Source: Euglena gracilis
Lineage: Eukaryota
Direction: 5' to 3'
NCBI GenBank assembly: GCA_039621445.1
Contig: CP154954.1
Coordinates: 23,200,954-23,264,953 of the forward strand
Length of the DNA stretch: 64,000 bases
The position numbers and the translations under genes are program-made. Under the pieces are notes generated by a model. The model worked only from the letters and a program-made list of their open reading frames with translations. It ran no database searches and was not told the origin of the DNA. Below, piece after piece: positions 1 to 46,178 of this stretch. How positions within the stretch are numbered: the stretch's first letter is position 1; each line of letters opens with the position of its first letter.

Positions 1-541
1 ATTGAGAGCTTGTTCGCGTTCTCCCGAACATCGAGAAAAATTTTGGTGCATTTTTTGGCTCCTTCCTTCAGCTCGATCTTACAGAACGGACCGCATATCG
101 CGGGGTCGATGTCGCACGCGTATACTGCATTTTCCAGCACACCGTGAAATTCGCGGGTGATCCGCGAACAGAATTCGGCTGACTTGGACGCTGACCTGCA
201 CCCTCGATGACTGCGGAAACCACCAGGGTATCCCCTGGGGCTACCGAGTTTCCTCGGCACCGCGAAATCGGACATTCTGAATGCATCGAAGAAACATACG
301 CGAAAAATGATTTCTTGCAAGGGTGGTAATATTTTACCACAAAAATCGGTACATTAGTGGGCAAATCCCACGAACGAAAACACAGATACGATAGTTGGGT
401 GAACCATTCCGCTTCTGGAATGATGGGTATGAGAATAACAAGGCATTCCATATGTGTTTCGCGTATTCATGCACCGGATTTCCGGGTTTAAGGGAATAAA
501 CACAATGAATGGATCCACAAACACGCGGGCTGTCTTCCACT
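1..541 (-). pseudogene. pol: Gypsy pol fragment (methyltransferase-RT linker region) with internal deletion
   Basis: Closely matches 40215-41020 (VILIPIIPEAEWFTQLSY, PGDTLVVSAVIEGAG). About 250 bp of the methyltransferase core is missing at ~440. Abuts a + strand ORF3 fragment at ~542. Confidence 0.85.
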
Positions 542-6195: not shown

Positions 6196-6199
6196 AAAA

Positions 6200-7455: not shown

Positions 7456-10400
7456 TCACTCCTGGTCCGAACCGGCCAAATAGCCGGCAGCGGGCCTTTT
7501 GGAGGTATACGCGGAGGTGAACGTGCGCACCGCCATGCGGGGCCCGTTGAAATCCTCGTCCAAAGTCTCATCCCCCTCCCTGCCAGAAGCCGGGGTTTCC
7601 TCCTCCAAACAAGGTAACCTGAAACCGACTTTATGGCGGTTGGAGGAGTGACCGTTGTCACCGCGATTCATACCGCGATGGCGGTGGCTTGGCCGGGGGG
7701 AACGAGACCCTGGGCATAGGGATGAGTGGTGATCACTCAATCCGCACAGTGAACAACGAGATTTGTGACGAGATTCAGAATGGCGGGGTGATCGGTTTCC
7801 CGATTTACCGTCAAACCGCCGTGGTGAACGGGCATTCCGTTGACCAGGACTCGTGTATCGGGGTTCTCCCGATGAAGTTGACGAAGAGGATGATCCGCTT
7901 CGCCAAATGAATCGCGATGCCTCGCGATATGAATCACGCTTCTTGGCAGGGGCACCGGGTGACCTACCCCGAGGGGTACCGTGTTTCCGCTCATCGCGGA
8001 ACGGGAACCGGGGGCTAATACCGCCGGAACGGGGACCCGATGACCGTGAATTGCCCGACTGGCGTGAAAATCCAGAGGAACCCGAACCTCGTGATGATGT
8101 CGATCCTCGCGGACTCAAGATACGCCTTCGCGCATCAGGATTCGGACAATCACGAGACATATGTCCCGGGTTATTGCACAAAAAGCACAATTTGTCCGTG
8201 GATTGATGCGAAGAACGCGTATATCGCGTTTTCGATCCCGTGGTTGGTGGAGTGGGTGAAACCAGTGATTTTTGCACTGCGTTCACCGAACCAGGCGGTA
8301 ATCCAGCGGTTGGGTGTGCGTTATACGCGGATTGAATTTGACCAAGAAGCTGTGATAGCTTCAACTGCTTGGAAACGTAATTCCAGCGTTGGTCAAGAGT
8401 CATTGGATGATCCGCTAGCTCCTCACGATGGATATCCTTGATGAGGCTAGGCGTGAAATGCATGAGAACAGCGTCAAACTGTTCACGCATTTGCTTTTCA
8501 CTCAGCTCATCCACTTCAGAGGCAAGTCCCAACCATTTGGCATACCAAAGGTCAATGGACTTCCACTTGCGGTCGGGTGGGGCGCATTGTCGCCACTTGG
8601 TCTCCAAGGTAATCCTGGCGACCAAACTTGAACTGTTGGAAGCGTATTGCTCCACCAGGTCGTCGAAGGAAATGCGGTAGCGAATCACGAGTTGTCGTGC
8701 GCGCTCCTTCTCATCCCTTGGGAGGCAATCGATGAACTCCATCTTGATCACCTCCGGGTTTGTGTCCTGGGTTGGCCCTTTCAATGCCCAGTAATACTCC
8801 CAGTCCCGGAAAAACTGTCTCCACGTGGTTGGATCACCATCCCACTGGGGTTTCACCTTGTTCGCGATTGCGATGGTGCCCTTGAAGTCTTCCTGAGGAA
8901 CCCAATGACCCTCGGTGGTATTCCGTGGATTCGGGCCCGGGTACTCTCGAGCACCAAGCGTATCCTTTCCGGATTCTTGTTGGAATCGCGAAATTTCTGG
9001 TGAAGGTGAATCCTGGTACCGGAAATCCGGTCGCAAACCCTGTTGGTCACCCGTAATAGGGGGACACTCCGGTGTGGGGGTATGTCGCGCATGCAACATG
9101 TGACCCACTCCCGGTGTACGGGTTTGGCTCATTCCACGCACAAGCCTGGAATGATGGATTTCTTGGTGGAGACTTGGCGGAATCGCCGTGTTTTCCGAAA
9201 ATTCGGTTCCCGTAATGGGAAATTCATCCGAAAACTGGGTTTGGGTTGTGGACAAGGCCAATGGTGGTACAATTCGCGGAATCGCGGATTGTGACAATCG
9301 GGACACGGGTGGTGGTGGTGCATGTGCACCCAGATTCGGGTTGTGGAAACGCGAATCTGGAGCATTTGGCGCATTTTCGGCAATGCATACTGCCGAATCA
9401 CGGTGTGAAACCCGCTGTTGGTTGGACACATTATCCAAACCGACAGACAAGTCATGCACACTTTGCTCCAAATGCTCAACGAGTTGGAGTTGGCCGCAAA
9501 TACAGTCAACTTCATCCTCCAAAGCGCGAATACGCTTGCGGTAACGGGAAAAGTCATCCAGATGCGGAATCCTTTCGGAAATTTCGGTGACATCTCGGAC
9601 TAGTTTCCCGTGAGACTCATCCAATAATTGGAGTTGTCCCATTAATGCTTTCACAGCACTTGAGAGGATCTGCAAAGGTGGTGTCACCTTGGTTGGTGTG
9701 TTAGTGGGTGCAACCGGTGCAGGGTCATCCGACAACGCGGTTGTGGTACCCACGAGCAAATTTCCGGGTTGTGGCTTATCCGACAACGCGGAAATCCGCT
9801 CATCCAACCTGGTAATCTCACCTTGGGTGGATCGGGCATTCCGATTCACCGATTCCTCAAGCCGTAATAGGCTGTTGCAGAATTCCTGCAAGGTTTCCTG
9901 ATTACCAGTGAGCATTTTGTCATAAAATGCCTTGAAATTACAGTTCTCGGTAATCCGAGAACTGGAACTTGCAGGTATAGACTGCATTTCCATTACTTTG
10001 GTAGACACCGATGCATACCGGGTCTGGAGTTCCCCAAAAGCAGTCTGAATACCGCTAATGTCCGGAACTCGGTGGGAAAGTGCGGAAAAGCTCTGTTGCA
10101 AACCCGCAATGGCCGAGTTAATCCCGCCAATGTCGGATTGCAATTGCAACTGCAGGGAATCCTGCCGTTGTGTCATTTCCGCCACTTTCGCGCTCAGATT
10201 TGATAATCCAACCTGATTCGCGTCACAATAGCAGGTTTTCTGCTCCAAACGGGAAAGTCGCTCCTCCAACTGCCGCACATACGTGTGGGGAGCAAAATTC
10301 TCGTTGGCTTGTGACTGCAATTGCCGAAACTTTTCCGTTTCATCGCACAACTGCATAATGCGGTGTTGCGATTCATGGAAAGTTGCGGACAAAGTGGTGA

Positions 10401-11433
10401 AATGGTCCATAGACACAAATCCACCATTGTGGGTTGTTGCAGACGAGGAATCTCGTGCATGCAACTGTTGTTGCAAATGCAACAACGCGGATGAACAGGA
10501 CTCCATTTGTCCCGATAGGTGTTGTAGTGAGTCATGCAAGTGCAGAAACTTGGAGTCATTCCGCGTTTCCGCTTCATGCATGCATTCACTAATTTGCCGG
10601 AAGTTTAGCGGGAGTTGTTGGCACATTCTGTCAAAGGTTTCCCGAAAGGTTGCAAGGTCAATACCCGCACTTTCGAAATTCCTTTGGCAATATTTGCCAA
10701 CTTCCTGCAAGTAATTCCAGCAGTGTTCCAGCTTGGTGAAGACATGTTTCTGGTTGTCCTCATCAAACTGAAGCACTTTGTTCAATGCGGTTGCACACTC
10801 TGCAACGCATTGTTGCACATGGTTGAACTGCCTCACAAGGGGGTGATCCCCTGGAAGCCGAACAACAATATCCTGCACATCCTCAGCAGTGAGGAGTTCA
10901 CTAGTGCCCTTCCCATAGTCATCCATGGGTTGGGATGTACCGGAGAATTCCGGCACCACTAGGCGAGTCTCCGGTTGCCAAGGTAGTGCGGGATAGCACC
11001 CGATATCGGGTGGTGGTGGCAAAGCTCTGTAAGGGCTTGCCGGTGGAAGAGCGGGTGGGGGTTGAAAGAAACACGGCGTTTCTAGCCCACCATCACCAGA
11101 GAAGCCCGGTGGCGGAATCACCACGGGTCTCTCCGGTGTGCGCAGCTGCACCATTGCCGCAGACAGAGGCGAATACCCCCGTTGTGGCAAGGTGAGTGCG
11201 GAAGAGGCCGCATTAGCCTCTGAAGCCGATGATGTGGAGGGCTCATCGCCGACCACTGTCAATGACGACAAGTGTTGCAATTGTGACAATTGAACCAATT
11301 GTGCCTCATCGGCGTGGGAACTGGAAGCACTTTCACATAAAAGCTTCCAATCCCCAGTTTCTTGGTCAATGTCTTGCAATGATGCCTGTAATAAGGCATA
11401 GTTGAATTGATGGTTGGGGCCTGTGCTTTGCAT
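7456..11433 (-). CDS. gag: Gag polyprotein (~1325 aa): long coiled-coil N-half, capsid-like domain, two CCHC zinc knuckles
   Basis: Open ORF. Start MQST is conserved in copies C and D. Contains PQWDGDPTTWRQFFRDWEYYW, CFLCNNPGHMSRDC and CSLCGLSDHHSSLC. Confidence 0.9.
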   Translation of the reverse strand: MQSTGPNHQFNYALLQASLQDIDQETGDWKLLCESASSSHADEAQLVQLSQLQHLSSLTVVGDEPSTSSASEANAASSALTLPQRGYSPLSAAMVQLRTPERPVVIPPPGFSGDGGLETPCFFQPPPALPPASPYRALPPPPDIGCYPALPWQPETRLVVPEFSGTSQPMDDYGKGTSELLTAEDVQDIVVRLPGDHPLVRQFNHVQQCVAECATALNKVLQFDEDNQKHVFTKLEHCWNYLQEVGKYCQRNFESAGIDLATFRETFDRMCQQLPLNFRQISECMHEAETRNDSKFLHLHDSLQHLSGQMESCSSALLHLQQQLHARDSSSATTHNGGFVSMDHFTTLSATFHESQHRIMQLCDETEKFRQLQSQANENFAPHTYVRQLEERLSRLEQKTCYCDANQVGLSNLSAKVAEMTQRQDSLQLQLQSDIGGINSAIAGLQQSFSALSHRVPDISGIQTAFGELQTRYASVSTKVMEMQSIPASSSSRITENCNFKAFYDKMLTGNQETLQEFCNSLLRLEESVNRNARSTQGEITRLDERISALSDKPQPGNLLVGTTTALSDDPAPVAPTNTPTKVTPPLQILSSAVKALMGQLQLLDESHGKLVRDVTEISERIPHLDDFSRYRKRIRALEDEVDCICGQLQLVEHLEQSVHDLSVGLDNVSNQQRVSHRDSAVCIAENAPNAPDSRFHNPNLGAHAPPPPVSRLSQSAIPRIVPPLALSTTQTQFSDEFPITGTEFSENTAIPPSLHQEIHHSRLVRGMSQTRTPGVGHMLHARHTPTPECPPITGDQQGLRPDFRYQDSPSPEISRFQQESGKDTLGAREYPGPNPRNTTEGHWVPQEDFKGTIAIANKVKPQWDGDPTTWRQFFRDWEYYWALKGPTQDTNPEVIKMEFIDCLPRDEKERARQLVIRYRISFDDLVEQYASNSSSLVARITLETKWRQCAPPDRKWKSIDLWYAKWLGLASEVDELSEKQMREQFDAVLMHFTPSLIKDIHREELADHPMTLDQRWNYVSKQLKLSQLLGQIQSAYNAHPTAGLPPGSVNAVQKSLVSPTPPTTGSKTRYTRSSHQSTDKLCFLCNNPGHMSRDCPNPDARRRILSPRGSTSSRGSGSSGFSRQSGNSRSSGPRSGGISPRFPFRDERKHGTPRGRSPGAPAKKRDSYREASRFIWRSGSSSSSTSSGEPRYTSPGQRNARSPRRFDGKSGNRSPRHSESRHKSRCSLCGLSDHHSSLCPGSRSPRPSHRHRGMNRGDNGHSSNRHKVGFRLPCLEEETPASGREGDETLDEDFNGPRMAVRTFTSAYTSKRPAAGYLAGSDQE

Positions 11434-11708
11434 CTTTCTGATGGCAAAAACAGCAAAAACCCACAAAACTAAGCAGTTGTGCTGGCACCAGAGGGGATGT
11501 AACGGGTAATACCGTACAGAGCCTTCCGGAGCCTGCTCGTCTGCTTAGACGTTGACTAGAAGCCGGGAGCTGACGCTGCGACCGTGTAATAACGGTGCAG
11601 GGGCTCTCCGCTGCCAGTCAGCGTAGGATTGTAACCAATCTGCTACCAAGTGTAATACTTGGTAGCGTTTCTTTCTGTATGGGCTGTATGTGTAGGATCG
11701 TGACCTAA

Positions 11709-18015: not shown

Positions 18016-21000
18016 GGGAGCCCGAGGTGCGAGGGCACGGACCTCTGGGCTGATGAACAGATGGAGGTAAGACCTGATCAACCTTACCCCCCCTGCCCAT
18101 CCGCCTTCACGGTCAGTACCCGGAATTATTTCGCGTCCCCTACCCCCCACTCCACATTTACGCTCGGAATGCTGAGCAAAGTAGGAAAGGGTTCATGGGA
18201 AAGCTGGCATGCAAACGTATTTCCGCCAGACCCTTCACTTTGCGTACCACCAATGGAATTACTTGTCCAAGCGGAAATCCGCATTCAAAATTTTAACTGA
18301 CACTGGTTGTCGCATTGCACTGCTCTTTCGGTTGGGGTTGATACCGACCCCGCTCTTGGTAAACGCCAAGAAACCGATCGAAATTGCAACCGCGGATAAC
18401 ACCCGCATGTGTAGTGGTGATTTGGGATGTGTGCTCGAGATACTCTTGCCATCATTCCGAAGCATTACTCACAACCCCCACAATTACGACATTTCACCAA
18501 TATTTGGGGTTACGAGTCCGGAATTCACGGGTCTGACGTAATTTTGGGATGCCCATTTTTACGCCAGTACCGATTGGTTGTGGATTGCCACTCCCACGGT
18601 TTGCGCATAGCACCCACCACTTCATTGACACCCAAACCACTATCACCGTTGGCATCCGCCATGATGACCACCACTTTTCTAACACCGTTACCCACGATGG
18701 CAACATCGTTATCCACCACACCAACAACCGTTTTCCACACCCGGGGTACGGAGAAAGCCTCCCCCCTGCCCAATGATACACCAGCAGGCGTTCTACCTGA
18801 GGCAGGGCAAGCGAGTAGCGGTACCCCCGCCGTTTCACTGGGTTACAAGACGAAATCCCAAAGGCCTGCGTACGGTGTCGAGTAGTCGCCCAGCTACACC
18901 ACCACTCCGTTTCCCACCAGTTGTGCCGAATCCAGGCACACCCGTACAAGACTCACCGGCTAGTGCCACCGGCACCCACTTACACACACACCCGTCACAC
19001 CATCACACTTCCTACCAATGTGTGCACTGCAGGAGAATTTCCACCCAATCGGATTTCGATTGTGGATGTTTAGTTGAAAATTCGACACTAATCGCATTTC
19101 CGAATACGGAATCCACACGCCATGATACACTTGGTTGTAGCCCGCAATGCGCGGAGATACACCGAGTACTCCAACCACGCGGATTAACCTCGTTGTTCCG
19201 AAACGCGAAAAGCGTTATGCCTAATCACCATCCCGAGTACACTTGGTATGAATTTGACGCGGAATGGGGAAACCCCAGCCTGTCCAAACTCCCTTGGGTT
19301 TAACCTTTGCGGTTGTGGAAGACAGTCCGCATGTTTGTGGATCCCTTCATTGTGTTTCGTCACTCCTACCCGGAAATCGGGTGCATGAATACGCGAAACG
19401 CGTATGGAATGCTTTCAATTTTGGTCAATATCGCATTTTGGAACGATGGTTTTCCAAAATCGCGACATTGGCTGATTCTTTTTATTTGGCATTGTAAATC
19501 GATGCCTTTTCATCCAATGCACATGTCCGTTTGCCACGTCATTGGTCACAACACTCCAACGCATTTGATAAATTTTGGGGTGATACGGTGATATGGATGC
19601 ACCCTCCCCCAAAACTTATCGAATGTGCGGTTGAGAAAATTCTGCGGGATGAAGCCCGTGCAGTTATTATTCTCATACCCATCATTCCGGAAGCGGAATG
19701 GTTCACCCAACTATGGTATGTGTGTTTTCATTGGTGGGATTTACCCACTAATGTACCGATTTTTGAGGATTTTTGTGGTAAAATATTACCACCCTTGCAA
19801 AAAATCATTTTCCGCGTATGTTTCTGCGATGCATTCGGAATGTCCGAATTCGCGGTGCCGAGGAAGCTCGGTAGCCCCAGGGATACCCTGGTGGTTTCCG
19901 CAGTCATCGAGGGTGCAGGTCAGCGTCCTAAGTCAGCCGAATTCTGTTCGCGGATCAACCGCGAATTTCACGGTGTGCTGGAAAATGCAGTATACGCGTG
20001 CGACATCGACCCCGCGATACGCGGTCCTTTCGGTGTTTGCAAGATCGACCTTAAGGAAGGAGCTAAACCAATGCACCGGAAATTTGCTCGTTGTTCGGGA
20101 GAACGCGAACAAGCTCTCAATGAAATGATTGAGAAGCTTATTCAGCGCAAGTCGATCGTACCCTCGAAAAGCGAGTGGACATCCCAGGCATTCGTTGTTC
20201 CTAAACCCCCAGATCCCTCAGGTCAGAAGAAGTGGAGACTGGTGCTGGATTACCGGTACCTGAACTCCCAAAAAAGGGATGATCCCTTCCCGCTCCCCCT
20301 GATCGAGAACTTGATCACCACACAATCGGAAAACCGGTTGTGGTCAATTTTCGATCTGGAGGACGGTTTTCACCAAATGCACTTGCACCCTGACTCACAA
20401 CCATACACGGCATTCGTGACATCCAAGGGTGTGTACCAATGGACGGTACTCCCCATGGGTGTTAAGAATGGTCCTGCCATGTCTCAACGCATGATACAAT
20501 GGGTTTTACGCGATGTACCGTTTGCCATTGTGCACATTGATGATGTGCTGGTGGGGACACCACCACCAACCACATAATCGAGCGAGGATATCCTCGTCAC
20601 ACACGTCCACCATGTTTACGCGGTATTAGACACTTTTCAAAAACATGTGCTTTACGTGAAAGGCGCGAAAATGCATTTGTTTCGGATACTTATAAAATTT
20701 TGCGGTCGCATCCTCAGCAATGGACAGCGGAAATCCGCTCCGAGTAAACTCGAAGCCATTAAGAAATGGACCCCTGAGGTAATCAAAACTATTACACACC
20801 TCAAAGGATTTTGGGATTAGCCCAATATTACGCGATTTATATGAAGGAATTCGCGAAAATCGCGGTGCCCCTCACCAAACAGCTCAAAAACCGGGCTGTT
20901 GACAACACCAAAGTCATTTGGGATGACCAAATGCGCGAGGCCCTTGAGAAAATCAAGGTTTTGCTTTTGGAGAATGTTGTCCTCGAAATCGCGGACCGGT

Positions 21001-28694: not shown

Positions 28695-28718
28695 TATATA
28701 TATATATATATATATATA
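28695..28718. repeat. (TA)n microsatellite in the 3' UTR
   Basis: About 12 TA units, versus a shorter run in the paralog at ~31574. Confidence 0.9.
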
Positions 28719-30330: not shown

Positions 30331-30746
30331 AGCTTTCCCTTTTCCCCTTTTTGGAACTTTCTGTAAAAGCCTTTCGCTTTCGCCTTGGTGCGCAGCCTAC
30401 TTATGGTAGGGAAAAGTCTTTGGAGTAACGAAAAGTGGTTTTCCCCTTTTCTTCCCAATTCCCCAAGAAGCAAAGCACAAAGCAAAGATTCAGAAGTTTT
30501 CTTCTGAGATCCAAGTTGATTGTTCTGAGGGTTTTTCCCTCTGACAAAACCAATGGTGAAACTTGGAGATTGTGAGAGTAAAGAATACCACCTGTGGGGG
30601 AAGGAGAGAAAAGTGCTGACGTGTCCAGGGGCAGATCCCAGAAGGGTCTGCCACGATCTTACCAGCTGTGGGTTTCCACAGTGGTGCGACCGTCACAGAA
30701 CCCACTCTGCAGATATCCTACAGAGCTGGGACGTGCCTGGTACACA
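30331..30746 (-). repeat. 3' LTR of element D (terminus lost or garbled)
   Basis: Direct repeat of 45764-46178. Confidence 0.9.
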
Positions 30747-31640: not shown

Positions 31641-34600
31641 TTACATCCGCTCCAGCCGCCAATAGTCATGGCGGGAGTCCAAGGGATCTTCCACAAGGAC
31701 CATCTGGAATTGTGGTGGCTGTGGCCTGTCGACAAGCCAGGTTTCTGGCGAGTCGTAGTCGAAATCAGGTGCGATCCAGTCCCGAACCCATCCTTCGGGT
31801 ACTGTCTGCTTGGTGGCACTCGCTCTTTCCGCGAGAAACCACTGCAGCTTCTCCCAGAATTTCCTGGGCAAAGTCGCTGGCCAGATGAAGTAGTTTCTCC
31901 GAGGGTGATTGGCTGACACCTGCGGGGCATTCCCCGGGTGGAAGTCGATGGGAACGTGATAGGCGCATTCCGCCCGGACTGTATGGGGTCGCAATACGGC
32001 CCCTAGCCAGTCCTTCCAGGTCATCCCGTGTTTTTCGGGTGGCCATTGTGGTAGGCACCAGCGACCGTTTCGGTCCTGGGTTGTGAACAGGCGGAAAAGT
32101 ATCTTTTCCCTGTCCGCTGTCTCCCAGAGGTAAGGTAATCTTACCCCTGCTTCCTCAGCAGCGAGGCGTATCGCCCCACTGTCGATCTGCCACCCACGGG
32201 CCATTCCCGTGTGGCGGTAGTCGTCGAGCTTGAGGTTGGCATATTTGAAGAAGTCCTTGAACTTTTTGTTCAAGGTGGAGTATTCCTCCAGTGGCTTCTC
32301 GGCACTCGGCACGATTGTGCGAACTGCGCCTTCCGCAGTGTGCCAGAAGGTACCTCGCAGGCAGTTGACGCAGAGTACTGGTACATTCGTACCATCTCGG
32401 TCCGTGTAGCTAAAATTGTGCTTGTGGGTCCAACTGTCCACGCACTTGGCGCATACCAAGGCGGCACAGTTGGGTATGTACATATCCTTGTGGAACGATT
32501 TCCGCTCCACAGGGTTGCACACATGGACGAGGGGTAATCCCAAGTCAGGGGCACTGTTGTACATCCTGTGGCAAACAGTGCAGAGCCACACAAATCGGTT
32601 TTCCGATGTTCTGTCGACGAGGAATTCCTCGCCAAAGTATTGGGCCAAAACACGTGGTGATCTGGAATTGTAATAATTCCAGGTGACATTCTGGTCAAAG
32701 GACCATTTCCGTCCTTGACAGAACAGTGGTTCAATCCACCGATTGAGGCATTGGTCTGTTCGCAGCTTATGTTCGATCATCATGTACCTGTTTTTCAGGT
32801 CATGAGTCTCAGGATCATCCTGAGTCATCGCATTCCAGTCGATGACAACTTCGCCTTCCGAAGGTGTCGTAATCGTAGAGGCGCGGGATTTTCCCTGCCC
32901 CTTCGTAGGTGGTTTCGGCTGTGAGGTTTTCCCATAGCCGGATGATGTGACCTGTGTGAATCCTCCTCCCGAAGCTGATCCTCGAGAAGAAGATGCACCC
33001 TGGCCTCCAGCACCACCACCGCCTTTCGGTGGGGGCTGATCACCTGTCTTAGGTGAGGGTTTGCAAGGCGCGGCACCGGGTTTTGATTTGGCCGGGGCCT
33101 TCGGACTTCCGCTTTCCGGAGCATCCGAGGGTCGCCGTTCGGCGTCACGCTTGCTTGACCAGGTGCGTGGTGACGGCTGGGCCGGGGGTCTTTTCCCCGA
33201 CACCGAGCGTCGTTGACCTTCAGCAGGGGTTTCCCGAGCTGAGGGTCGCCCTACGCGTTCCTTCGCTGCGCTCGTGGGTTTCCCAGGAGCAGCCGTGGAG
33301 GATGGTGTGGGTGTGGGCGTCGCCGCTGCACTTCGCGTTGGCGGAGTCTGTGGTGGGGGCATGGATGTCCGTGTAGCCTGTTTTTCAGGTGCCGGTGTCC
33401 GTGTGTCCGCACGCTTCGGTGCAGTGGCCGATGTGTGGAGGTACGGGCTCATCCCGTGCCTCTGATGCCGCTACCGGTGCTAATGTGGGTTCATCCTGCA
33501 CTGGCACGGGTAGCGTTGTCACCACTGACATTGCCGTTGGTTCGTCCTCCGTCCGTGTCGTTTCCGACACCGGCGGTGGCGCGGCCATTGGGGGAGGTTC
33601 ATCCTCCTCCATGGCTGCAGCTTCAGTTGTTTCGTCCGCTGGCTGGGCCGTTTCCGCCACAGCAGTGGAAGAACTAGCCGCAGTGCCACGTGGGGTGACA
33701 ACTGCGATCAGTGATCGCAAACCACCGAGTACACGTCCGCCCAGTGAGGGGCGCCGTTCAGGTCCTTCCCCTGAAGTGGGCTCCTCCACTGGCTCCTCTG
33801 TCGTCGGGATTTCCCCGGGGACAGGAAGCTTGAGGCGTAATACCTCAGGCGTAGGGGTTACCGTCTCCGGCGGGTTTTCCCGCGGAGGGGTCGGTCCGCC
33901 AGGCGTACCCAGCGAGGATGGTGACAGTGGGACAGGCGTCAGTTCACCTCTCGGTGATCCTGGGCGCTGGGCGGTTTCCGCCACAGTGTCCAGCATCACG
34001 ACCGACGGGCTACGGGTTTCCCGTGCCGGGGGTTCCGCAGGCTGAGGTTCATCCTCGGCCATTGGGACCGCTTCTCCTGTCTCCTCCGCTTCCGGAGGGG
34101 ACTCCTCTGTGTGTAGTTGGGCTGCAGAACGCGGGTCTTCCCTGCTTCTGTAGCACCCTTGAGCATTTGACAGGCGGAAAAAGCTAATACTTTCACTCCT
34201 GTCAGAGTTGGGGTATGGAGGTGGCCACGACGCTCGCACCCAGCTTCCGGGTGGAGGTTGAGGCTCATCCTCGTTGATCAGGCAGAGGTCTTCCCACTGC
34301 GATCGACGGGCCTCACCCATACCATACTCTCCCGTTTCTTCCAGGAAAGCTGGCAGTGGTACTGCGTAGCGAGGTTGGCTTAGCTCGCGGGGAGCGAAGA
34401 ACACTTCGAACTCCTGCCAGTCCAGGATTTCCCCGAACTGGCTCTGCAGGTGTTCCCGGAGGCCGATTTCTGCCCCCGTCCAGTCCGGCCGCAGGTTTAT
34501 CCTGCGTCGGTCTGGATCATACGGTCTGGCATCTACCTCGGTGTATCCCCGAGGTATCCACTTCCTGTGGATATCCACATCGGTGGTCATCTGTTCCAGG

Positions 34601-37083
34601 AAATATATATATACTTCCAGGACGTAGGTAATCCACGCCCTGTGCCAGTATTGTTGGAGCAGAAATATTTTCTGCCGGTGCTGTTTCAGCACCTTCCGGT
34701 CTTGCGTTCCGATCTGGGGTTTCCGGCACTGATGCAGGAGGAATCTCCTGGTCGGTGGGCTGCCGGCATTCTCGGCAGTCGGAGGCGGTTTTCCGCGCTC
34801 CCCGAAACCCCAGAAGTCAACAATGTGGACTTCCTTGCAAAACCGGCATTCCAGTTTGTATCGTTGAGGGTAGGCGAGGTCCACGTCCAGTACCTTGAAC
34901 AGCATGCCATACATGCTGTCCAAGAATACTTGGAGGTTGTTTGTGAACATTACCGCAGCCTGCGCCTGGAGTTTCTCCGGCAGGGGGTAATATTTCCACT
35001 GGATTCCCAGTGCGCTGACGGAATACATGTGGTTGAAGATTTCCTTCAACTGTGCTACGAATGTTTCATCGTCTTCACATGTGTTCAAACAATCGATGTA
35101 TGTCAGACCGTTTCGGTCGGTGAAAATGCCAAAGTTCTGGCAGGGATATCCCAACCAGAACCAGAGTTCCCAGAAACCAGACATCTGGTCCAGGACCATT
35201 TCATCCGAATGAGGGTATCCCTCAAACGGATGAAGTTCGGTACTGTAGATGAATCGTTTGCAGTGATCGTGCATACGATCCTGCACCACTGCGAGCACCG
35301 CTTCCGGTGGTCGGTGGATCACGTTGCCAGCACGCGTGTACTTTTCGAGATCCTGGTCGATTTTCGGCCAGATTTCATCCAAGTAATCGAACAGCTGGTC
35401 AGCGTCGTAATCCTTCGTTTTCGAAGGTTCGGCGGCTTTTCCGCCTTTTCCTGCTGGGGGTCCGGCAGATTTTCCGCCTTTGCCTGGAGGTGGTCCAGCG
35501 GGTTTTCCGCCTTTCCCAGATGGGGCTTTCCCACCTTTCTCCTGGCCTTTACCTTTACCCTTACCCTTGCCTTTTCCTTTACCCTTGCCCTTCGTGTTGG
35601 ACAGCCATTCTATCGTCGCCCGATATGGGTCCCAATATTCCCAGTATTCTGGGTCTTCTTCTGTATACACAGGATAAGTCACGGATTCCGTGCTTGGTGT
35701 TCGAGCAAATTCCTGCTCAGCATCACCACGATTCGAGTAAACCGGTGCGACTGGGGATGGTCGGGTTTCCCGACGTGCCCGTTCTGCCGTCACGTCGGGC
35801 GCTGGCGGAGCTTCCTCCTCAGCGTCGACGCGCATCGCCGCGGGCGGATTTTCCGACCTCGGCGAGCGGCGTTGTGGCTGCGGCGTCAGATTTTCCGGGC
35901 CGCGGTCACGTTTGCCGGCGGCAGAGCTTGTGGGTCGTGCTGGTGGCGCTTCCGCCACAGCCACGTCCCGCTGTCGCGCTGGTTGACTTAACCGTGATGG
36001 AGCTGGGACTCCTGTGAGAGCCGACACAGCAGCATCATACTGCTGGCGCTCTTCCCGTGTCATTTCCGCCCGGGCAGGGTATCCCTGGCCAGCGGAAACA
36101 GGGGGGCGACGTGCGATTTGTCGTTGGATCGTCACAGCATATTCATACTGTTGACGGTCCTCCTCAGTCTCGAACGGCCGACCAGTCCACGGGTTAACGG
36201 GTTCATCCCGTGCCGGGGGAACTGGTGCCGCACGAGGCGCTGTCGCGGCTTCCCGCGGACGAGCGCTTCGGGCAGAGTCAGACGTCGGGGGAGGATTTCC
36301 CTCCGCAGGACGTCGTGGGATAGGGTCAGGTATGGTTGGGTGGGGTTGAGGTGGATATACGTACTGATCCCGTGGCATTGGCGCCTCCTGGGGGTAATCC
36401 CCAGAGACGGTATACTGAGACACAGGCTCCTGCGCAGGATAATCCCGCCGGGGCATGCGCTCAGGGGATCGAAAAATACTTTCTTTTACACGTGGGTGTT
36501 CACTCCGGACAGGTGCTTCCACCGTCTCTTCCTCGGGTAATCCGGGGGAGTGAGCACGAAAATGTGCAGTGTAAGTGCCAACAGGTGGTACCTGCCTGGC
36601 GACCTGTGGCGGGACTTCCACGCCCAGGTCACGCATGGTAATGTCTGCCGCGAATCCCGACGCGTCCGGGTCGGTGTAATACACCAGACCGGTCATCGTC
36701 GCCTGGGCGCACATACACCACAGGGCTGGAGGGGTATTCGCGATAGTCAAAACTTTACGGCAGTGGTCATCCCACAATGCCTGTGTGAGTTGGTCTGGTG
36801 CCGGGTTTGCGCTCATACGCATAACCCGGTTCATCGTCTCCGCCGTGCGGTGGATCATCACACCCGCATACGGTGGGAGGCGACGAGAGCCTGATGGCTG
36901 AGATGGCCGCGCTTCCGCGGGCATCTGGGTCATCCTGCTACTGCTGCTGGCTTCAGGGTTTCCCTGAGCCGCAGTCCGTGCAGGTGGCTGCGTACCGTAT
37001 CGGTACGCATACTGGTCAGGTTGAGGGTGAGTGGTGGGGTGGTAAGGCGGTCCTCCGCCTGGCTCCCTTCCGCCGGGCAGCAT
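31641..37083 (-). CDS. ORF3, unknown ~1800-aa accessory protein (one frameshift at ~33440)
   Basis: 1232-aa and 603-aa frames overlap. Pro/Ala/Glu-rich linkers, KG repeats and two Trp/Cys-rich globular blocks. Conserved in copies A and C. Confidence 0.8.
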
Positions 37084-37245
37084 GATACAGCCCGGGGTCG
37101 GTACGGTGGGATGTTTGGGTTGTTGGTTGTAAGGTGTGTGAGGGTAACCGCTTGAGTATTATTTGGTAAAAAGTCTGCGGAAAGAAAGAATGATAAGAAT
37201 CAATGATAAAAAGAAGAGAAAACAACATGGGTTTCCCATGCGTTC

Positions 37246-40200
37246 TCAAAAACTTGTCATGGAAACATCAATGTTATGTTTCTTATTCCACAGCTTCCAA
37301 TCTTGCTGGACATACCCAACAAAACTGGTTGCTGGCTCCCAAGTGTCCTCCTCGGGCCCATACCCTTTCCAGCGGACCTTCCAAAGGTGCATACCTTTGT
37401 CGATTTTGTGATCGATAATTTTATCGACTACAAAGTCGTCCGTCTCAGGTAATCTGGAACGGGGTTTGAAGTGCAAACACGGGATGGGTTTCCCATCCGG
37501 TGGCGACAGGTATGGTTTGAAGTCGTCCATATGAACGTCCTCAACACCATTCGGTAATGCAACCTTGTAACGCCCGCTGGTACCTAGTCTTTCTAGGATT
37601 TCACAGGGGCCGAGCCAGAGGGGGTCCAGCTTGGAAGACTGCATGCGAGTACGGCTATTCCGTACCCACACGCGGTCACCGGGACTGTAAACAGGTGACT
37701 TGAAATTCTGCAAAAACGATTTCCGTTTTGCTGCATGAATATCAGTCACGCGCTTCTGGACTGCAGAACGTAGATTTTCTACTTCCGCAAACCAGGTCTC
37801 GCAACTGACACTCGTTCGGGCGGGTCTCTCCGAAGGGACATCCCCTATGGCCGGAGGGTCCCGTCCGAAAACTAATTTATAGGGGGAGTGAGGTAAAACC
37901 AACCCTGGTAGGGTATTGATATAAAACAAAGACCATGGTAGAACTGATATCCAGTTGCTGCGCGAGTCAGCCAGTGAAAGGCGAAGCATATTCACGACGG
38001 ATTTCACGGCTGCCTCGGCTCTACCATTGCCTTTGGGTCGGTATATAATGGAAAAATGTTGCTCGATTCCGAGTAAACCGCACAAAGTGGTGAAAAACCT
38101 TGAAGAAATCAAATGGTCTTGATCACTCACGATTTCATTCGGTAAACCCATTAAGCAAATGCATTTCTCCAAAATATAGCTGCCAAACTTTGGGCAGTCA
38201 ACCCTGACTTCTGGCATGGAATGGCTACAATGTACCCACTCAGCCTGCAGACAACAACAAAAACGTAATCGTAAATTTTGTCGTCTGTTCCTTTGCACGG
38301 TTCTAATTCCAGAAAATCCATGCAGAGGGATGTAAAAATGTCAGGGGGTACGGGGAAAAAGTCCATCGTACCAGGGGGGGTACCTCTGCGGGGTTTTACC
38401 GCTTGACAAATTTGACACCGTTGCGCTATTCGCAAACAGCGTGAGTAAAGCTCTTTCTCGCTCAGGGTTGTACAGTACCTGCGGCCCACCAACGAAAGAA
38501 GTTTGGGGGCCCCAGGGTGACCATGGTTGTGATAACACAAAATCACATCATCAACCAGGTCCTGGGGGATACAATATTTGTAACCCGATTCATTGCGAAA
38601 AACCAACCGTAAAGGTGAAAGAGTGTAATTGTCCAGCACTTCGCCATTACGAAGTCTGGTGACAATGGTGTCATACACCGGATCACGACTATAATCCCAT
38701 TCGCGAAAGAACAGTGGGGAAGGGGACTCCGTGCGCGTAATACGCCGGGGCCCGGACGTGCTTCCACGTCGGCGCCTTCCTCGCACTGGTGCGACCAGGA
38801 ATAGTTGTGAAACGGGAAAAGAATCCAAAAGATTGTCCGCAGCGTCGTTTCGACGTGCGTACTCGTCAGCTTCCTGACTTCCATGAAAAGTCGCGTCTCC
38901 CTCATCCGGGTTCCCAGGGTAATACCAAGGGGCCCGACTGAGCGGATCCGCTACTTTTTGTGTGTGTCCAGGGGTATAGATAACCACAAGGTTGAATTGA
39001 CTCAAGAACTCATGCCATCTGCATCGCCTTCCGACCGATGACATGGCCTTGTTCAAATCCTCGGTGTACCAGTGTTGCAGACTCTCATGGTCGGTCTTGA
39101 CGAGGATCTGGACGAGACTGCTGGCTACCCAGCTTCGGAATTTCTGGAGTATAAGCACGATTGCGTAGGTTTCCTTCTCGCGTATACTCCATTTGACTTG
39201 ACCTTTTCCATCGTCGCCCTGTAACTTTCTGCTGAAGAAAGCTACAGGTCGGAGCTCATTCGCCGCATTATGCTGGCTAAGAACTCCGCCAACAGCGTAA
39301 TCGCTGCTGTAGACTTCAAACACGTATGGTTTGTACGGGTCCGCGATTTCGAGGACAATATTCTCCAAAAGCAAAGCCTTGATTTTCTCAAGGGCCTCGC
39401 GCATTTGGTCATCCCAAATGACTTTGGTGTTGTCAACAGCCCGGTTTTTGAGCTGTTTGGTGAGGGGCACCGCGATTTTCGCGAAGTCCTTCATATAAAT
39501 CGCGTAGTATTGGGCTAATCCCAAAAATCCTTTGAGGTGGGTAATCGTTTTGATTACCTCAGGGGTCCATTTCTTAATGGCTTCGAGTTTACTCGGAGCG
39601 GCTTTCCGCTGTCCATTGCTGAGGATGTGACCACAATATTTTATAAGTATCCGAAACAAATGCATTTTCGCGCCTTTCGCGAAAAGCACATGTTTTTGAA
39701 AAGCGGTTAACACCGCGCAAACATGGTGGAAATGTGTGACGAGGATATCCTCGCTCGACCTTGCGGTTGGTGGTGGTGTTCCCACCAGCACGTCATCAAT
39801 GTACACAATGGCAAACGGTAAGTCGCGTAAAACCCATTGTATCGTGCGCTGAAACATAGCTGGGCCATTCTTAACACCCATGGGGAGTACCGTCCATTGG
39901 TACACACCCTTGGATGTCACGAATGCCGTGTATGGTTGGGAGTCAGGGTGTAAGTGCATTTGGTGAAAACCGTCCTCCAGATCGAAAATTGACCACAACC
40001 GGTTTTCCGATTGTTTGGTGATCAAATCCTCGATCAGGGGGAGCGGGAAGGGATCATCCCTTGTTTGGGAGTTTAGGTACCGGTAATCCAGCACCAGCCT
40101 CCATTTCTTCTGACCTGAGGGGTCTGGGGGTTTAGGAACAACAAATGCCTGGGATGTCCACTCGCTTTTCGAGGGCACTATCCACTTGCGCTGAATAAGC

Positions 40201-42344
40201 TTCTCAATCATTTCATTGAGAGCTTGTTCGCGTTCTCCCGAACAACGAAAAAATTTCCGGTGCATTGGCTTGGCTCCATCCTTAAGCTCGATCTTACAAA
40301 CACCGAACAGACCGCGTATCGCGGGGTCGATGTCGCACGCGTATACTGGATTTTCCAGCACACCGTGGAAATCGCGGGTAATCCGCGAACAGAATTCGGC
40401 TGACTTAGGATGCTGACCTGCACTCTCGATGACTGCGGAAACCGCCAGGGTATCCCTGGGGCTACCGAGCTTCCCCGGCACCGCAAATTCGGACATTCCG
40501 AATGCATCGAAGAAACATACGCGAAAAATGATTTCTTGCAAGGGTGGTAATATTTTACCACAAAAATCCTCAAAAATCGGTACATTAGTGGGTAAATCCC
40601 ACCAATGAAAACATACATACGATAGTTGGGTGAACCATTCCGCTTCCGGAATGATGGGTATGAGAATAACTCCACGGGCTTCATCCCGCAGAATTTTCTC
40701 AACCGCACATTCGATAAGTTTTGGGGGAGGGTGCATCCATAACACCGTATCACCCCAAAATTTATCAAATGCGTTGGAGTGTTGTGACCAATGACGTGGC
40801 AAACGGGCATGTGCATTGGATGAGAAGGCATCGATTTCCAATGCCAAATCAAAAGAATCAGCCAATGTTGCGATTTTGGAAAACCATCGTTCCAAAATGC
40901 GATATTGACCAAAATTGAAAGCATTCCATACGCGTTTCGCGTATTCATGCACCCGATTTTCGGGTTGGAGTGAAGAAACACAATGAATGGATCCACAAAC
41001 ATGCGGGTTGTCTTCCACTACCTCAAGGGGTAATCCCAAGGGAGTTTGGACAGGTTGGGGGTTTCCCCATTCCGCATCAAATCCGTACCAAGGGTGATCG
41101 CGATTGTAATTAGGAATCGCGCTTTTCGCGTTTCCGAACAACGAGGCTAATCCGCGTTGTTGGAGTACTCGGTGTATTTCTGCGCATTGCGGGCTACAAC
41201 CAAGTGTATCATGGCGTGTGGATTCCGTATTCGGAATTGTGATTAGTGTCGGATTTTGAACTAAACATCCACAATCGAAATCCGATTGGGTGGAAATTCT
41301 CCTGCAGTGCACACATTGGAAGGAAGTGTGATGGTATGACGGGTGTGCGTGAAAGTGGGTGTCGATGACATTAGCCGGGGAGTCTTGTACAGGTGTGCCT
41401 GGATTCGGCACAACTGGTGGGAAACGGAGTGGTGGTGTAGCTGGGCGACTACTCGACACCGTACGTACTGCAGGCCTTTGGGCTTTCGTCTTGTAACCCA
41501 GTGGAACGGCGGGGGTACCGCTACTCGCTTGCCCTGCCTCATGTGGAACGCATGTTGGTGTGTCATTGGGCAGGGGGGAGGCTTTCTCCGTACCCCGGGT
41601 GTGGAAAACGGTTGTTGGTGTGGTGGGTAACGGTGTTGCCATTGTGGATAACGGTGTGGTTAAAGCGGTGGTCATCATAGTGGATGACAACGGTGATGGT
41701 GGTTTGGGTGTCGATGAAGTGGTGAGTGCTGTGCGCAAACCGTGGGAGTGGCAATCCACAACCAATCGGTACTGGCGTAAAAATGGGTATCCCAAAATTA
41801 CGTCAGACCCGTGAATTCCGGACTCGTAACCCCAAATATTGGTGAAATGTTGTACTTGTGGGGGTTGTGAGTGATGTTTCGGAATGATGGGCAAGAGTAT
41901 CTCGAGCACACATCCCAAATCACCACCACACATGGGGGTGTTATCCGCGGTTGTAATTTTGATCGGTTTCTTGGCGCTTACCAAGAGCGGGGTCGGTATG
42001 AACCCCAACCGAAAGAGCAGTGCAATGCGACAACCAGTGTCAATGAGAATTTTGACTTTGGTGGAGAAAGTTTGAACGCGGATTTCTGCTTGGACGAGTA
42101 ATTCCATTGGTGGTACGCAAAGTGAAGGATCTGGCGGAAATACGTTTGCATGCCAGCTCTCCCATGAACCCTTTCCTACTTTGCTCAGCATTCCGAGCGG
42201 AAATGTGGAGTGGGGGGTAGGGGACCCGAAATAATTCCGGGTACTGACCGTGAAGGCGGATGGGCAGGGGGGGTAAGGTTGATCAGGTCTTACCTCCATC
42301 TGTTCATCAGCCCAGAGGTCCGTGCCCTCGGACCTCGGGCTCCC
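37246..42344 (-). CDS. pol: Pol: aspartic protease, Dam-like methyltransferase domain, RT, RNase H, DDE integrase, chromodomain (one frameshift at ~38172)
   Basis: ILIDTGC..VILGYPFL; IDAFSS..NAFDKFW..WMHPPP; DLEDGFHQ, PMGVKNGP, YIDD; REKETYA, TDHESL, ADPLSR; HHCC, MDF, SDQD, NGRAE, LGPCEI; FVVDKIIDH..VRWKGYGPEEDTWEP. Confidence 0.95.
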
Positions 42345-45300
42345 CTACTCCAAGTCCGAACCGGCCGCATAGCCGGCAACGGACTTTTTGGTGGAATAGA
42401 TGGAATTCAATGAGCGCACCGCCATTCGGGCCTCATTAAATTCCCCGTCCGAGGTCTCATCCCCCTCCCTGCCCGAAGCCGGGGTGTCCTCCTCCAACTT
42501 CGGAAGCAAGTGCTAACCATTTGGCATACCAAAGGTCAATGGATTTCCATTTGCGATCCGATGGCGCGAATTGTCGCCACTTCTTCTCCAGGGTAATCCT
42601 GGTGACCAGACTTGAATTGGTTGAAGCGTATTGCTCAACCAGGTCATCGAATGATACGCCATTACGTATCACCAAATTGCGTGCGCGTTCTCGCTCCTCC
42701 CTCGGTAGGCAATCGATGAATTTCATCTTGACTACCTCGGGATTCGGGTCTTGGGTGGGTCCCTTTAGTGCCCAATAGTACTCCCAGTCCCGAAAAAATT
42801 GTCTCCATGTGGTTGGATCCCCGTCCCATTGGGGCTTCACCTTGTTCGCGATTGCGATGGTGCCCTTGAAGTCTCTCTGAGTAACCCGCTGACCCTCGGT
42901 GGTATTCCAGGGGTTTGGGTCAGGGTAAGTCTTAACACCAAACGCGTTTCGCTGATTTTCCGCTCCATGTGTAACCCGTGCAGGATTTCCCGCACCAAGT
43001 GTAAGGTTGGCAGGATTTTCCTGCGGGAATTGCGAAAAATGTGGTGAAATTCTCCCGGTGGGGCGGGTTTCCCGCCGAAAACCCGATGGGTGATTCGGTA
43101 ATTCAGAACCCGTTGGTGGTTGGTATGATCGCGAATGCGACACATGACCAATACCAGGTGTGGGGTGTTGGCTCATTCCTCGTACAAGGTTGGAATGTTG
43201 AATTTCTTGGTGGAGACTCGAATTTTCGAGTGGGGGGTCAATTTCCTCATCGGAAATGTCGTGTGAAGAGTGAGTTTGTGGTGTGGGCAAATGCAAAGGT
43301 GGTACAATTCGCGTTTTCGCGGGTGGTTGTACCAAATTCGCGGTGGATGTAGGGATTCCTACTCCAGAAATGGTAATTTGAGAACGCGATTCCGGGACAT
43401 TTGGAATACCAACCGCAGCGCTTACCGCGGTGGATGGTGGCACAACCGGTATCGGAGTGGACATTTTATCCAAACTCGCGGACAAGTCATGCACCGTTTC
43501 TTCCAAATGTTCCACCAACTGGAGTTGGCCGCAAATACGGTCAACCTCAGTCTCCAAATGCCTAATGCGTTTGCGGTAACGGGAAAAATCTTCCAAGTGT
43601 GGCAACTTTTCAGAAACCAAGTGTAATTCTTGGGCAAGATTTCCTTGGGACTCCTCCACATTCCGGAGTTGACCCGCAAGCGCTTTTACCGCATTTGAGA
43701 CGGTTTGCAATTGGTGGAGTGACTTTGTGGGGGTTTCCACGGTGGTGCGCGAATTTTCCGCGGTTGGCTTTTCCAACAACGCAGAAATTCGTCCATCCAA
43801 CCGAGAAACCTCATCTTGCATGGATCGGGCATTCCGATTCACGCTTTCCTCAATTTGGAGCAAACTTGTACAAAATGCTTGCAAGGTTTCCTTGTTGTCA
43901 CCAAGCACTTTGTCATAAAATGAGCGAAATTCCGGTGACTCGGATATCCGAGCACGCGAAATGGGGGGTAGTGAGCGGATTTCCGTCACTGTCGTGGACA
44001 ACAAGGTGCAACGGGTTTGCAATTCCCCAATAGCGGCTTGAATACCACTAATGTCGGGAATTCGCTTGGAAAGTGCAGAAACATACTCCTGCAAACCGAC
44101 AACGGTGGCATTAATACCGCCAGTGTCCGTTTGCATTTGTTGTTGCGTAAAATCCAACCGTTGTGCGCAATCCGCGATTTTCGCGTTCAAGGTGGTTAAT
44201 CCATCCTAATTTGCGGCACAATGGCAGCATTTTTGCTCCAAGTGTGAAATTCGTTCCTCCAAAAGCTGGATTTGTGTACGCGGAACAAAATTTTCTTGCA
44301 CTTTCGCCTGGAATTGCTTCAAGTGCTCGATTTCCGAGCCAAGATGCAAAATCCGTTGTTGGGCTTCTTGGAAAGAAGTGGTAAGTGCGGCAAAATGCTC
44401 AACCGCGACAAAGTTACCGATTTCCGGCATTTTGGGGGTGGCATTTTGCGCTTGTAACTGCTGCTGCAATTGCAGTAGCATGGTTGAACATGATTCCACT
44501 TTGCCAAAAAGATGGCTCATACCATCTTGCACGTGCAGAAACTTGGAGTCATTCCGCGTTTCCGCTTCATGCAGCATTTCGCTGATTTGTTGGAAATTTT
44601 GTGGAAGTTGGATGCGCAAAATACTGTCAACACTTTCTTGAAAATGCTGAAGGTCTTTCCCCGCATTTTCAAAATTGTGTTGGCAATATTTGCCGATTTC
44701 CTGCAAATAATTCCAGCAACATTCCAGTTTGGTGTTGACAACCCTTTGATTGTCCTCATCGAACTGCAAAACTTTGTTGAGCATGGTTGCGCATTCCGAA
44801 ACGCATTGATGGACATGCAAAATTTGCTGGGAGTTGACCGAGAATTCGGTAAACATCACCGGGGGTGAGGTTATCCCTCAAATCTTCCTCATAGTCCTCC
44901 ACAATGGAAACGGCACCAGAGATTTCCGGCACCACCAGACGCATATCTGGGTTCCATGGCAATGCAGGGAAAACCGCCGCTTCCGCGGGTAATCCCAGCA
45001 AAGCGTGAAATGGTGTGGGGGGTGGTAATTGAGGGGGGGGTTGGAAAAAACACGGTGTTTCCACCGAGTTGCACTCCAGAAGGCCCACCGGTGCTTCCAC
45101 CGGGGATCTTTTGGGTGTGAACAGAGCAAAGGGCAAATACCCCTCACTTTGTTCATGGGTAACATGAGTAACCAAGTGTGAGGGTGCAAGGGGTTCATCC
45201 CCTCGCCGCATCAATGATGGGTGAATCGGGATGGAGGAAGGCATTTTGCCACCTACATCCCGCACAATCAATGACAATGATGATGAAGAGGGTTCATTAC

Positions 45301-45496: not shown

Positions 45497-45750
45497 CTTT
45501 TGAGATGGGTAAAAAGGCAAAAACCCAAAAATTCACACAAATAAGCAGAGAAACAGGGACCAGAAAGGTTGTATCGGCGATTACCGAACAGAGCCTTCTG
45601 AGACCTGTATCTTTGCTTAAAGGTTGGCTAGGGGCCAGGAACAGTACTTTCACCGTGTTTCACGGCTCAGTACGATCCTCACCACCAGTCAACCACAGAG
45701 TTTCTCTGTGTGGAACGTCTGTGTAGGTTCGTTGCCTAAATCTGCTACCA

Positions 45751-46178
45751 AGTGTACGTCCAAAGCTTTCCCTTTTCCCCTTTTTGGAACTTTCTGTAAA
45801 AGCCTTTCGCTTTCGCCTTGGTGCGCAGCCTACTTATGGTAGGGAAAAGTCTTTGGAGTAACGAAAAGTGGTTTTCCCCTTTTCTTCCCAATTCCCCAAG
45901 AAGCAAAGCACAAAGCAAAGATTCAGAAGTTTCTTCTGAGATCAAAGTCGATTGTTCTGAGGGTTTTTCCCTCTGACAAAACCAATGGTGAAACTTGGAG
46001 ATTGTGAGAGTAAAGAATACCACCTGTGGGGGAAGGAGAGAAAAGTGCTGACGTGTCCAGGGGCAGATCCCAGAAGGGTCTGCCACGATCTTACCAGCTG
46101 TGGGTTTCCACAGTGGTGCGACCGTCACTGAACCCACTCTGCAGATATCCTACAGAGCTGGGACGTGCCTGGTACACA
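45751..46178 (-). repeat. 5' LTR of element D (428 bp)
   Basis: TGTGTACCAGG...GACGTACACT followed by the PBS. Confidence 0.95.

Follow-up and report, generated by a model that had tools for sequence, protein, structure and literature searches.

The stretch analyzed here, hereafter the window, comprises 64,000 nucleotides (nt) of the Euglena gracilis contig CP154954.1 (assembly GCA_039621445.1, positions 23,200,954 to 23,264,953 of the forward strand). On its minus strand lies a 15.8-kb Ty3/Gypsy chromovirus, element B, whose genes are arranged in the order protease (PR), cysteine-rich linker, DAM, reverse transcriptase (RT), RNase H (RH), integrase (IN), and chromodomain. The subject of this report is the DAM segment, a Dam-like methyltransferase-fold domain embedded in the Pol polyprotein. 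The window as a whole is a nest of repeats of one family; in addition to element B, it holds an older, broken copy C (approximately 13290-29973), which is 92-94% identical to B and arranged tail to tail with it, as well as a third, frameshifted piece of the DAM domain. The features that define the domain and its copies are listed below in window coordinates.

42344..38151, minus strand: Pol open reading frame (ORF) P0001, 1397 amino acids (aa), containing PR, linker, DAM, RT, RNase H, the integrase zinc domain, and the start of the integrase core
42041..42033, minus strand: DTG motif of the aspartic protease, in the Pol ORF frame
40488..40955, minus strand: Dam-like methyltransferase-fold domain, Pol residues ~464-619; the PF05869 match spans 40865-40626
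40904-40881, minus strand: YRILERWF, in frame between DTG and YIDD
40835-40818, minus strand: IDAFSS, in the Pol ORF frame
40733..40722, minus strand: HPPP at the position of motif IV, where the family consensus is NPPF
40646-40623, minus strand: EAEWFTQL, in the Pol ORF frame
39624..40136, minus strand: reverse transcriptase (PF00078, RVT_1, E=3.9e-24), with YIDD at 39803-39792
19380..19850 (about), plus strand: the same DAM domain in copy C
1..441, minus strand: third DAM fragment, frameshifted, consisting of the C-terminal half of DAM and the linker to RT, 90% identical to element B 40215-40670

A preliminary description of this DNA, made from the sequence alone, had placed a Dam-like peptide at 40500-40915 in frame between protease and RT. 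The peptide is indeed present in the window, on the minus strand; the plus-strand reading of 40500-40915 was rejected because that frame is full of stops. The position claimed for the domain holds, as the single 1397-aa ORF contains the DTG motif, the domain, and RT. The domain is also shared with copy C, as had been proposed, where it is interrupted by one in-frame stop right before IDAFSS and carries one extra codon, and both copies B and C read HPPP at motif IV. The assignment of the host element to the DDE-integrase, chromodomain class is borne out by the integrase zinc domain, the long terminal repeats (LTRs), and a chromodomain (PF00385, E=1.4e-10, 41.4 bits).

When the domain is isolated as a 221-aa stretch, PF05869 (Dam) is its sole Pfam match (E=1.3e-4, 22.1 bits, profile positions 22-105 of 169). 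A word-based homologue search with the domain returned one protein only, P0002, its nearest relative by domain (63% identical), which matches the same region of PF05869, and a search of the ESM Atlas gave scores that all lie below 0.8. An exhaustive phmmer (HMMER) search of 1.84 billion representatives yielded 336 proteins at E<=1e-3; of these, 94 reach E<=1e-10 and 10 reach E<=1e-30. All eight of the long homologues scanned match PF05869, three of them above the curated cut-off (P0017, 31.6 bits; P0042, 29.5 bits; P0122, 49.2 bits). Moreover, PF05869 is matched at E<=1e-3 by 56 of the 78 sequences in alignment A1, with a best value of 2e-13, and it is the only methyltransferase family to be matched. 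Given the 336 homologues, 94 of them at E<=1e-10, and the 56 PF05869 matches, the Dam match is therefore not due to chance.

An AlphaFold2 model computed from A1 reaches a mean predicted local distance difference test score (pLDDT) of 86 and a predicted template modeling score (pTM) of 0.72, with pLDDT >90 over domain residues ~25-180. In BFVD, this model is matched best by phage DNA N6-adenine methyltransferases of small size, with E from 1e-9 to 3e-7, for example that of Serratia phage Tsm2 (target-normalised TM 0.81, root-mean-square deviation (rmsd) 2.6). Foldseek against the PDB gives six matches at E<=1e-3, all of them PCIF1/CAPAM (E=4e-5), followed by KsgA, DIMT1, and Dot1L. A full PDB scan with VIA-align likewise places PCIF1 first (Z 10.6, rmsd 2.7, 128 residues aligned), ahead of PH1948 (9.6), METTL5 (8.7), KsgA/Erm, M.BseCI (7.9), T4 Dam (7.7), E. 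coli Dam (7.5), and M.TaqI (7.5). The PDB matches are all class I methyltransferases, and the domain is thus predicted to adopt a compact class I (Rossmann-like) amino-methyltransferase fold. In the model, HPPP directly follows the strand at residues 95-98, which is the location of motif IV. By a simple offset of the aligned ranges, and not residue by residue, it falls near the NPPF of PCIF1. The absence of any Rossmann-fold methyltransferase match had been named in advance as an outcome that would speak against a Dam-like domain; Foldseek, VIA-align, and BFVD all return methyltransferases instead. The assignment to the phage-Dam type (PF05869) proposed in the preliminary description is hence supported by the Pfam match, by homologues that exceed the cut-off, and by the fold matches.

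To map PR, DAM, RT, RNase H, and IN in 269 collected proteins, we built profiles from the corresponding segments of the window. The DAM domain precedes RT in 66 of these proteins, and 24 of the 66 show the full order PR-DAM-RT-RH-IN; other orders occur in P0122 (RT-RH-DAM-IN) and in two fragments (RH-DAM). The presence of a DAM upstream of RT in 66 proteins means that the arrangement in element B is not a chimera or a product of misassembly. The closest Pol relatives, 44-87% identical over RT-IN, are proteins from JGI/ENA assemblies, many of which carry precomputed PF05869 and chromodomain annotations, and among named proteins the closest are 'Gypsy retrotransposon integrase-like' sequences of fish at ~30% identity. 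Scans of metagenome contigs for the DAM loci of relatives gave no confirmed locus. When P0001 is compared with 31 Pol relatives, DAM can be aligned in 30 of 31, covering 74-100% of the domain with 26-70% identity; the identity of RT is 39-84% and that of PR, where present, 23-52%. The PR-DAM linker, in contrast, is 0-42% identical and often not alignable. Set against the linker, the conservation of DAM across these relatives reads as a family-level sign of constraint.

Amino-methyltransferases carry motif IV in the form (D/N/S)-P-P-(Y/F/W). The consensus of the homologues, LW-i-NPPF-S, conforms to it, and copies B and C (HPPP, within LWMHPPPK in the window) and P0002 (HPPL, within LWLHPPLK) do not. 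We took a census of motif IV in 143 domains of at least 110 aa. The motif begins with N in 88 domains, with H in 36, with C in 12, and with some other residue in 7. The fourth residue is aromatic in 66 of the 88 N-type and 9 of the 12 C-type domains, and in only 6 of the 36 H-type domains. Mean retention of 19 family-core residues follows the same division, with 0.91 for the N type, 0.80 for the C type, and 0.66 for the H type.

On a FastTree phylogeny of the 143 domains, the motif states are clustered. Parsimony requires 13 changes for the H state, and starred branches force at least 7 of them. Of the 15 rows in one starred clade, 14 are H, and the starred clade of the window's own domain (22 rows) contains 13 N, 8 H, and 1 other. 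From these distributions, HPPP is a derived state, the change from N to H having arisen repeatedly and usually with loss of the aromatic residue; in the H lineages, the pocket as a whole is relaxed with the fold retained. A separate CPPF variant forms clades of its own (P0189, P0206, P0178, and others; 12 of 143 domains, 4 changes on the tree). It keeps the aromatic residue, unlike most HPPx domains, and some CPPF proteins lie on multi-megabase assembly contigs.

The remaining features of element B are listed below.

45753..46178, minus strand: 5' LTR, ~426 nt, with TG...CA ends
45735..45750, minus strand: primer-binding-site-like sequence, read directly, beginning TGG 2 nt past the end of the 5' LTR
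42457..44877, minus strand: gag-like coiled-coil ORFs of 223 aa and 582 aa, with Pfam matches of coiled-coil type only
41265..41315, minus strand: CxxC...CxC motif of the PR-DAM linker, Pol residues 344-360, common to P0001, P0002, and P0004
38994..39416, minus strand: RNase H of Ty3/Gypsy type (PF17919, RT_RNaseH_2, E=7.7e-22; PF17917, RT_RNaseH, E=1.9e-20)
38388..38570, minus strand: integrase H2C2 zinc domain (PF17921, E=3.2e-6, 27.6 bits against a cut-off of 25.5)
38162..38180, minus strand: frame break in the integrase core, where a homopolymer run has one base fewer than its counterpart in copy C
37246..38340, minus strand, next frame: remainder of the integrase core, SH3-like domain (37680-37525), and chromodomain (37434-37327)
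31641..37158, minus strand: two ORFs between chromodomain and 3' LTR, 1257 aa (proline-rich, with a GK repeat) and 609 aa
30747..30756, minus strand: polypurine tract GGGAGGGGGA, adjoining the 3' LTR on its upstream side
30331..30746, minus strand: 3' LTR, shorter by the final 11 nt of the 5' LTR, which the 3' LTR of copy C also has

The hallmarks of a chromovirus are present, namely direct LTRs with TG..CA ends, a polypurine tract, the order PR-RT-RNase H-IN, an H2C2 and DDE integrase, and a chromodomain. RVT_1, RT_RNaseH_2, RT_RNaseH, and Integrase_H2C2 exceed their Pfam cut-offs, and the SH3-like domain matches SH3_Tf2-1 (PF24626, E=3e-7). The match to rve is weak in element B because the frame break splits the integrase core; Pol relatives carry a full rve. 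No Pfam protease family matches P0001 itself. The first 10 nt of the primer-binding-site-like sequence may resemble the complement of the 3' end of an initiator tRNA-Met. A reading of the flanks revealed no target-site duplication at the ends of the element. The linker motif has the form CxxC-(10)-CxC, lies inside the otherwise poorly conserved PR-DAM linker, and may be a small zinc-binding module that accompanies the DAM domain. The two downstream ORFs are kept at 84-89% in copy C and other fragments; neither belongs to a Pfam family, and an ESM Atlas search of the 1257-aa ORF found no match.

The two LTRs are 99% identical over 416 nt (direct repeats 30331-30746 and 45764-46178). Element B is a recent insertion, young by its LTRs, yet defective, with a gag deletion, the integrase frame break, and the shortened 3' LTR. 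Its gag lacks ~0.9 kb, corresponding to 16960-17863 of copy C, that carries the CCHC knuckles in that copy; the CCHC motif was read both there and in a related ORF at 7456-11544. At the frame break, one extra base at 38162-38180 is found in contigs of runs X15, X16, and X17 (one each) and in 23 contigs of the DNA run X1. The longer homopolymer form is carried by the contigs of all three RNA-type runs and by a minority of the DNA-run depth (71,073 of 540,529). Either the break is common to many genomic copies, or the short form is in part an artefact of assembly or reads.

The Pol stretch is present in part in 20 of the 24 runs listed. Fourteen runs of one organism hold 0.71-0.83 of the sampled Pol words, and an RNA-Seq metatranscriptome of leaf litter holds 0.37. 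One DNA run contains 107,497 contig pieces that match the element with an identity of >=90%, including 33,572 with >=99%, and the family is therefore highly amplified there. Contigs cover 30, 29, and 30 of the 30 element bins, the DAM region included, in X17, the metatranscriptome sequenced by RNA-Seq, and in two further runs presumed to be RNA. Such cover in RNA-type runs is weak evidence of transcription, as DNA carry-over is possible. Copies B and C have a CpG observed/expected ratio of 0.88 and a GATC ratio of 0.82-0.87, with no clear methylation footprint.

Several further observations concern the surroundings of the two copies. A second element occupies 1614-12024 on the minus strand, with 306-nt LTRs (1614-1919 and 11719-12024) that are 99.7% identical. 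It carries the related gag ORF (11544..7456, 1362 aa, including a CCHC knuckle), pieces of the PR/linker region, and a 91-bp tandem array of ~30 copies (~3184-6334) where DAM-RT-RH-IN would be. The segments on either side of it, 542-1613 and 12025-13274, are contiguous in copy C. This second element looks like a non-autonomous, satellite-carrying derivative that inserted into another copy of the B/C family. The string formed by the polypurine tract and LTR start of the B/C family recurs at 63810-63827 (minus strand). Another retroelement family is represented by a 2.4-kb repeat (55580-57996 and 61021-63448, 97% identical, ~5.45 kb apart) with ORFs that match RVT_1 weakly. A Pfam scan of every other long ORF in the window returned either an RT match or no family, and the ORFs of the window are those of retroelements only. 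Long G/C homopolymer runs and A/T-rich low-complexity sequence lie beside the LTR ends of B and C (30000-30330 and 46179-46200); these flanks may represent a favoured insertion context or assembly noise in a nest of repeats.

Two kinds of retroelement with a Dam-like domain are on record. For the DIRS1 type, PMC3783388 describes a homologous methyltransferase domain in Pol, detected by PF05869, which follows RNase H, in agreement with the position given in the preliminary description. DIRS elements have no protease and no DDE integrase, encode a tyrosine recombinase, and are bounded by inverted or split repeats. Element B, in contrast, has PR, IN, a chromodomain, and LTRs, its DAM precedes RT, and no ORF scanned matches Phage_integrase, the tyrosine recombinase family.

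The second kind was reported recently, and the novelty implied by the preliminary description does not stand. A bioRxiv preprint (Fernandez-Moreno et al., 22 May 2026; 10.64898/2026.05.21.726589) already describes, as a first report, DAM domains in Ty3/Gypsy elements, chromodomain elements among them, and puts forward the same idea of N6-methyladenine (6mA) marking. According to that text, the DAM-bearing transposable elements comprise 30.9% chromodomain LTRs and 21.3% non-chromodomain LTRs, and the DAM-LTR elements form five lineages (Chlorophyta chromovirus-like, Chloro-Ochrophyta, Ichthyosporea, Pyropia, and Euglena); the position of DAM is stated for one of them only, between RT and integrase. 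The same text states that the Asn-Pro-Pro triplet is retained in almost all DAMs and that eukaryotic DAMs expressed in E. coli cause no gain of 6mA. It reports higher 6mA on DAM-LTR insertions in three species and proposes that 6mA is deposited on RNA-DNA intermediates or new insertions, with recruitment of the host AMT1. In the screen it describes, hmmsearch was run over 880 genomes and transcriptomes of EukProt with a threshold of E<=1e-5. As the window domain (E=1.3e-4) is weaker than this threshold, like lineages may have been missed. Beyond this preprint, a search of one literature library found no prior report of Dam in non-DIRS LTR elements.

Element B shares with the DAM-LTR elements of the preprint, and above all with the chlorophyte chromovirus-like lineage, the Ty3/Gypsy LTR organization, the DDE integrase, the chromodomain, and a PF05869-type DAM in Pol. 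Like them, it is a non-DIRS LTR element with DAM in the same ORF as RT. It differs in having His-Pro-Pro in place of the Asn-Pro-Pro that the text gives as conserved. A Dam domain in a Gypsy element is a known kind with the 2026 preprint, and the present analysis contributes the wide range of PR-DAM-RT relatives and the HPP/CPP motif, which is derived and recurrent. Cellular and phage enzymes are more distant. The phage Dam proteins of PF05869 share the DxF-type strand and a PP loop following the next core strand; their identity to the element domain is ~10-19%, and the element domain is embedded in a polyprotein with HPPP instead of the catalytic motif. PCIF1/CAPAM and METTL5, which rank among the best solved-structure neighbours of the model, show no detectable sequence homology to the domain and differ in being cellular enzymes with extra domains and RNA substrates.

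The sequence comparisons and the model make it very likely that 40488-40955 encodes a phage-Dam-type fold that is an integral part of a Ty3/Gypsy chromovirus Pol, and that element B is a recent but defective copy of a DAM-LTR element from a lineage with HPPP at motif IV. In the family at large, the Pol-borne DAM would most probably act within the particle on the replication intermediate of the element (cDNA or an RNA:DNA hybrid) or, alternatively, on the new insertion, where N6-methyladenine would be deposited or exploited. For the lineage in the window, we lean somewhat toward a domain whose catalysis has been weakened or lost, because its motif has changed from NPPF to HPPP, and which has been kept as a nucleic-acid-binding or structural module of Pol. 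METTL14, the catalytically inactive partner of METTL3, has a motif IV from which the D/N and the aromatic residue are both missing, and it persists as a scaffold that binds nucleic acid. It belongs to the MT-A70 family, is unrelated to the Dam domain, and serves as an analogy only. The derived motif also weakens the suggestion in the preliminary description that the element marks itself with 6mA and couples this mark to chromodomain targeting.

Several results count against the explanation as a whole. The PF05869 score of the window domain lies under the gathering cut-off of 28.1 bits, and PDB sequence searches with the domain and with a 78-sequence profile gave no relevant match. The 19 core columns were defined on N-type sequences, which inflates the retention computed for that type, and the window domain itself keeps 16 of the 19. 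The H state is stably inherited across whole clades, and the replacement of N almost only by H and C looks more like a selected alternative than like decay. Finally, the ratio of non-synonymous to synonymous rates (dN/dS) of DAM between B and C is 0.42, which is based on 5 synonymous and 8 non-synonymous changes and is not significant; the ratios for RT, RNase H, IN, PR, and the PR-DAM linker are 0.25, 0.19, 0.15, 0.98, and 1.11, respectively.

The core retention of the window domain, its confidently predicted fold, and the clade-stable H with its restricted replacements would all fit an HPPP domain that is still an active N6-adenine methyltransferase and marks the cDNA or the new insertion, His taking the role of Asn in hydrogen bonding to the target amino group. 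The higher 6mA on DAM-LTR insertions reported in the preprint points the same way. This alternative nonetheless seems doubtful. HPPP has neither the D/N/S residue nor the aromatic residue of the motif, and the aromatic residue is rare throughout the H type. By the same account, even the eukaryotic DAMs of NPP type gave no 6mA in E. coli.

It is improbable that the domain acts on RNA instead of DNA, for example by N6-methylation of the genomic RNA of the element or of a cap-adjacent adenosine. The best solved neighbours of the model are indeed RNA adenosine N6-methyltransferases (PCIF1, the PH1948/METTL5 type, and KsgA/Erm), but a common fold does not determine the substrate. The phage DNA N6-adenine methyltransferases in BFVD, moreover, score better E-values than PCIF1-like viral proteins, and homology at the level of sequence is to PF05869 only.

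We consider it similarly improbable that the domain is a functionless relic riding in Pol. Copies B and C are both broken elsewhere, motif IV is non-canonical, and the dN/dS of DAM between them is not significantly below 1, all of which a relic would explain; against this, DAM remains alignable in nearly all Pol relatives, down to 39% RT identity, next to a linker that is barely alignable or not at all, and its conserved core residues are common to the 336 homologues. The least probable explanation by far, a piece of DIRS inserted into a Gypsy element or else a chimera made in assembly, could appeal to the nest of repeats in the window and to the caution about nested insertions in Euglena in 10.64898/2026.05.21.726589, and was rejected because the frame is uninterrupted from PR to IN, the order is identical in copy C, in P0002, and in the 66 independent metagenome/genome proteins, contigs from three other runs span the DAM region, and no scanned ORF encodes a tyrosine recombinase.

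A bolder and quite tentative proposal is that element B represents a large and as yet unsampled radiation of PR-DAM-RT chromoviruses in which the catalytic Asn has repeatedly given way to His or Cys and the stacking aromatic residue has been lost. DAM might then be a non-catalytic binder or reader of adenine or 6mA, or an enzyme of altered chemistry. As part of the same proposal, this radiation could be common in environmental assemblies and hugely amplified in one organism. If DAM has in fact been converted from a writer in this manner, the model in which DAM-LTR elements are 6mA writers would fail for at least a quarter of the family.

With a DNA-modification domain of its own, a retrotransposon has a means of manipulating the chromatin of its host. 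The DAM-LTR class was described only in 2026, and its enzymatic role is so far a proposal. The relatives collected here show that PR-DAM-RT is the common arrangement among those in public assemblies, and the member in the window has diverged enough to fall under the published screening threshold. In approximately a third of the 143 sampled domains, HPP or CPP replaces the supposedly conserved triplet in a clustered and recurrent manner. This replacement bears on whether DAM domains are enzymes, and NPPF and HPPx domains constitute natural variant pairs.

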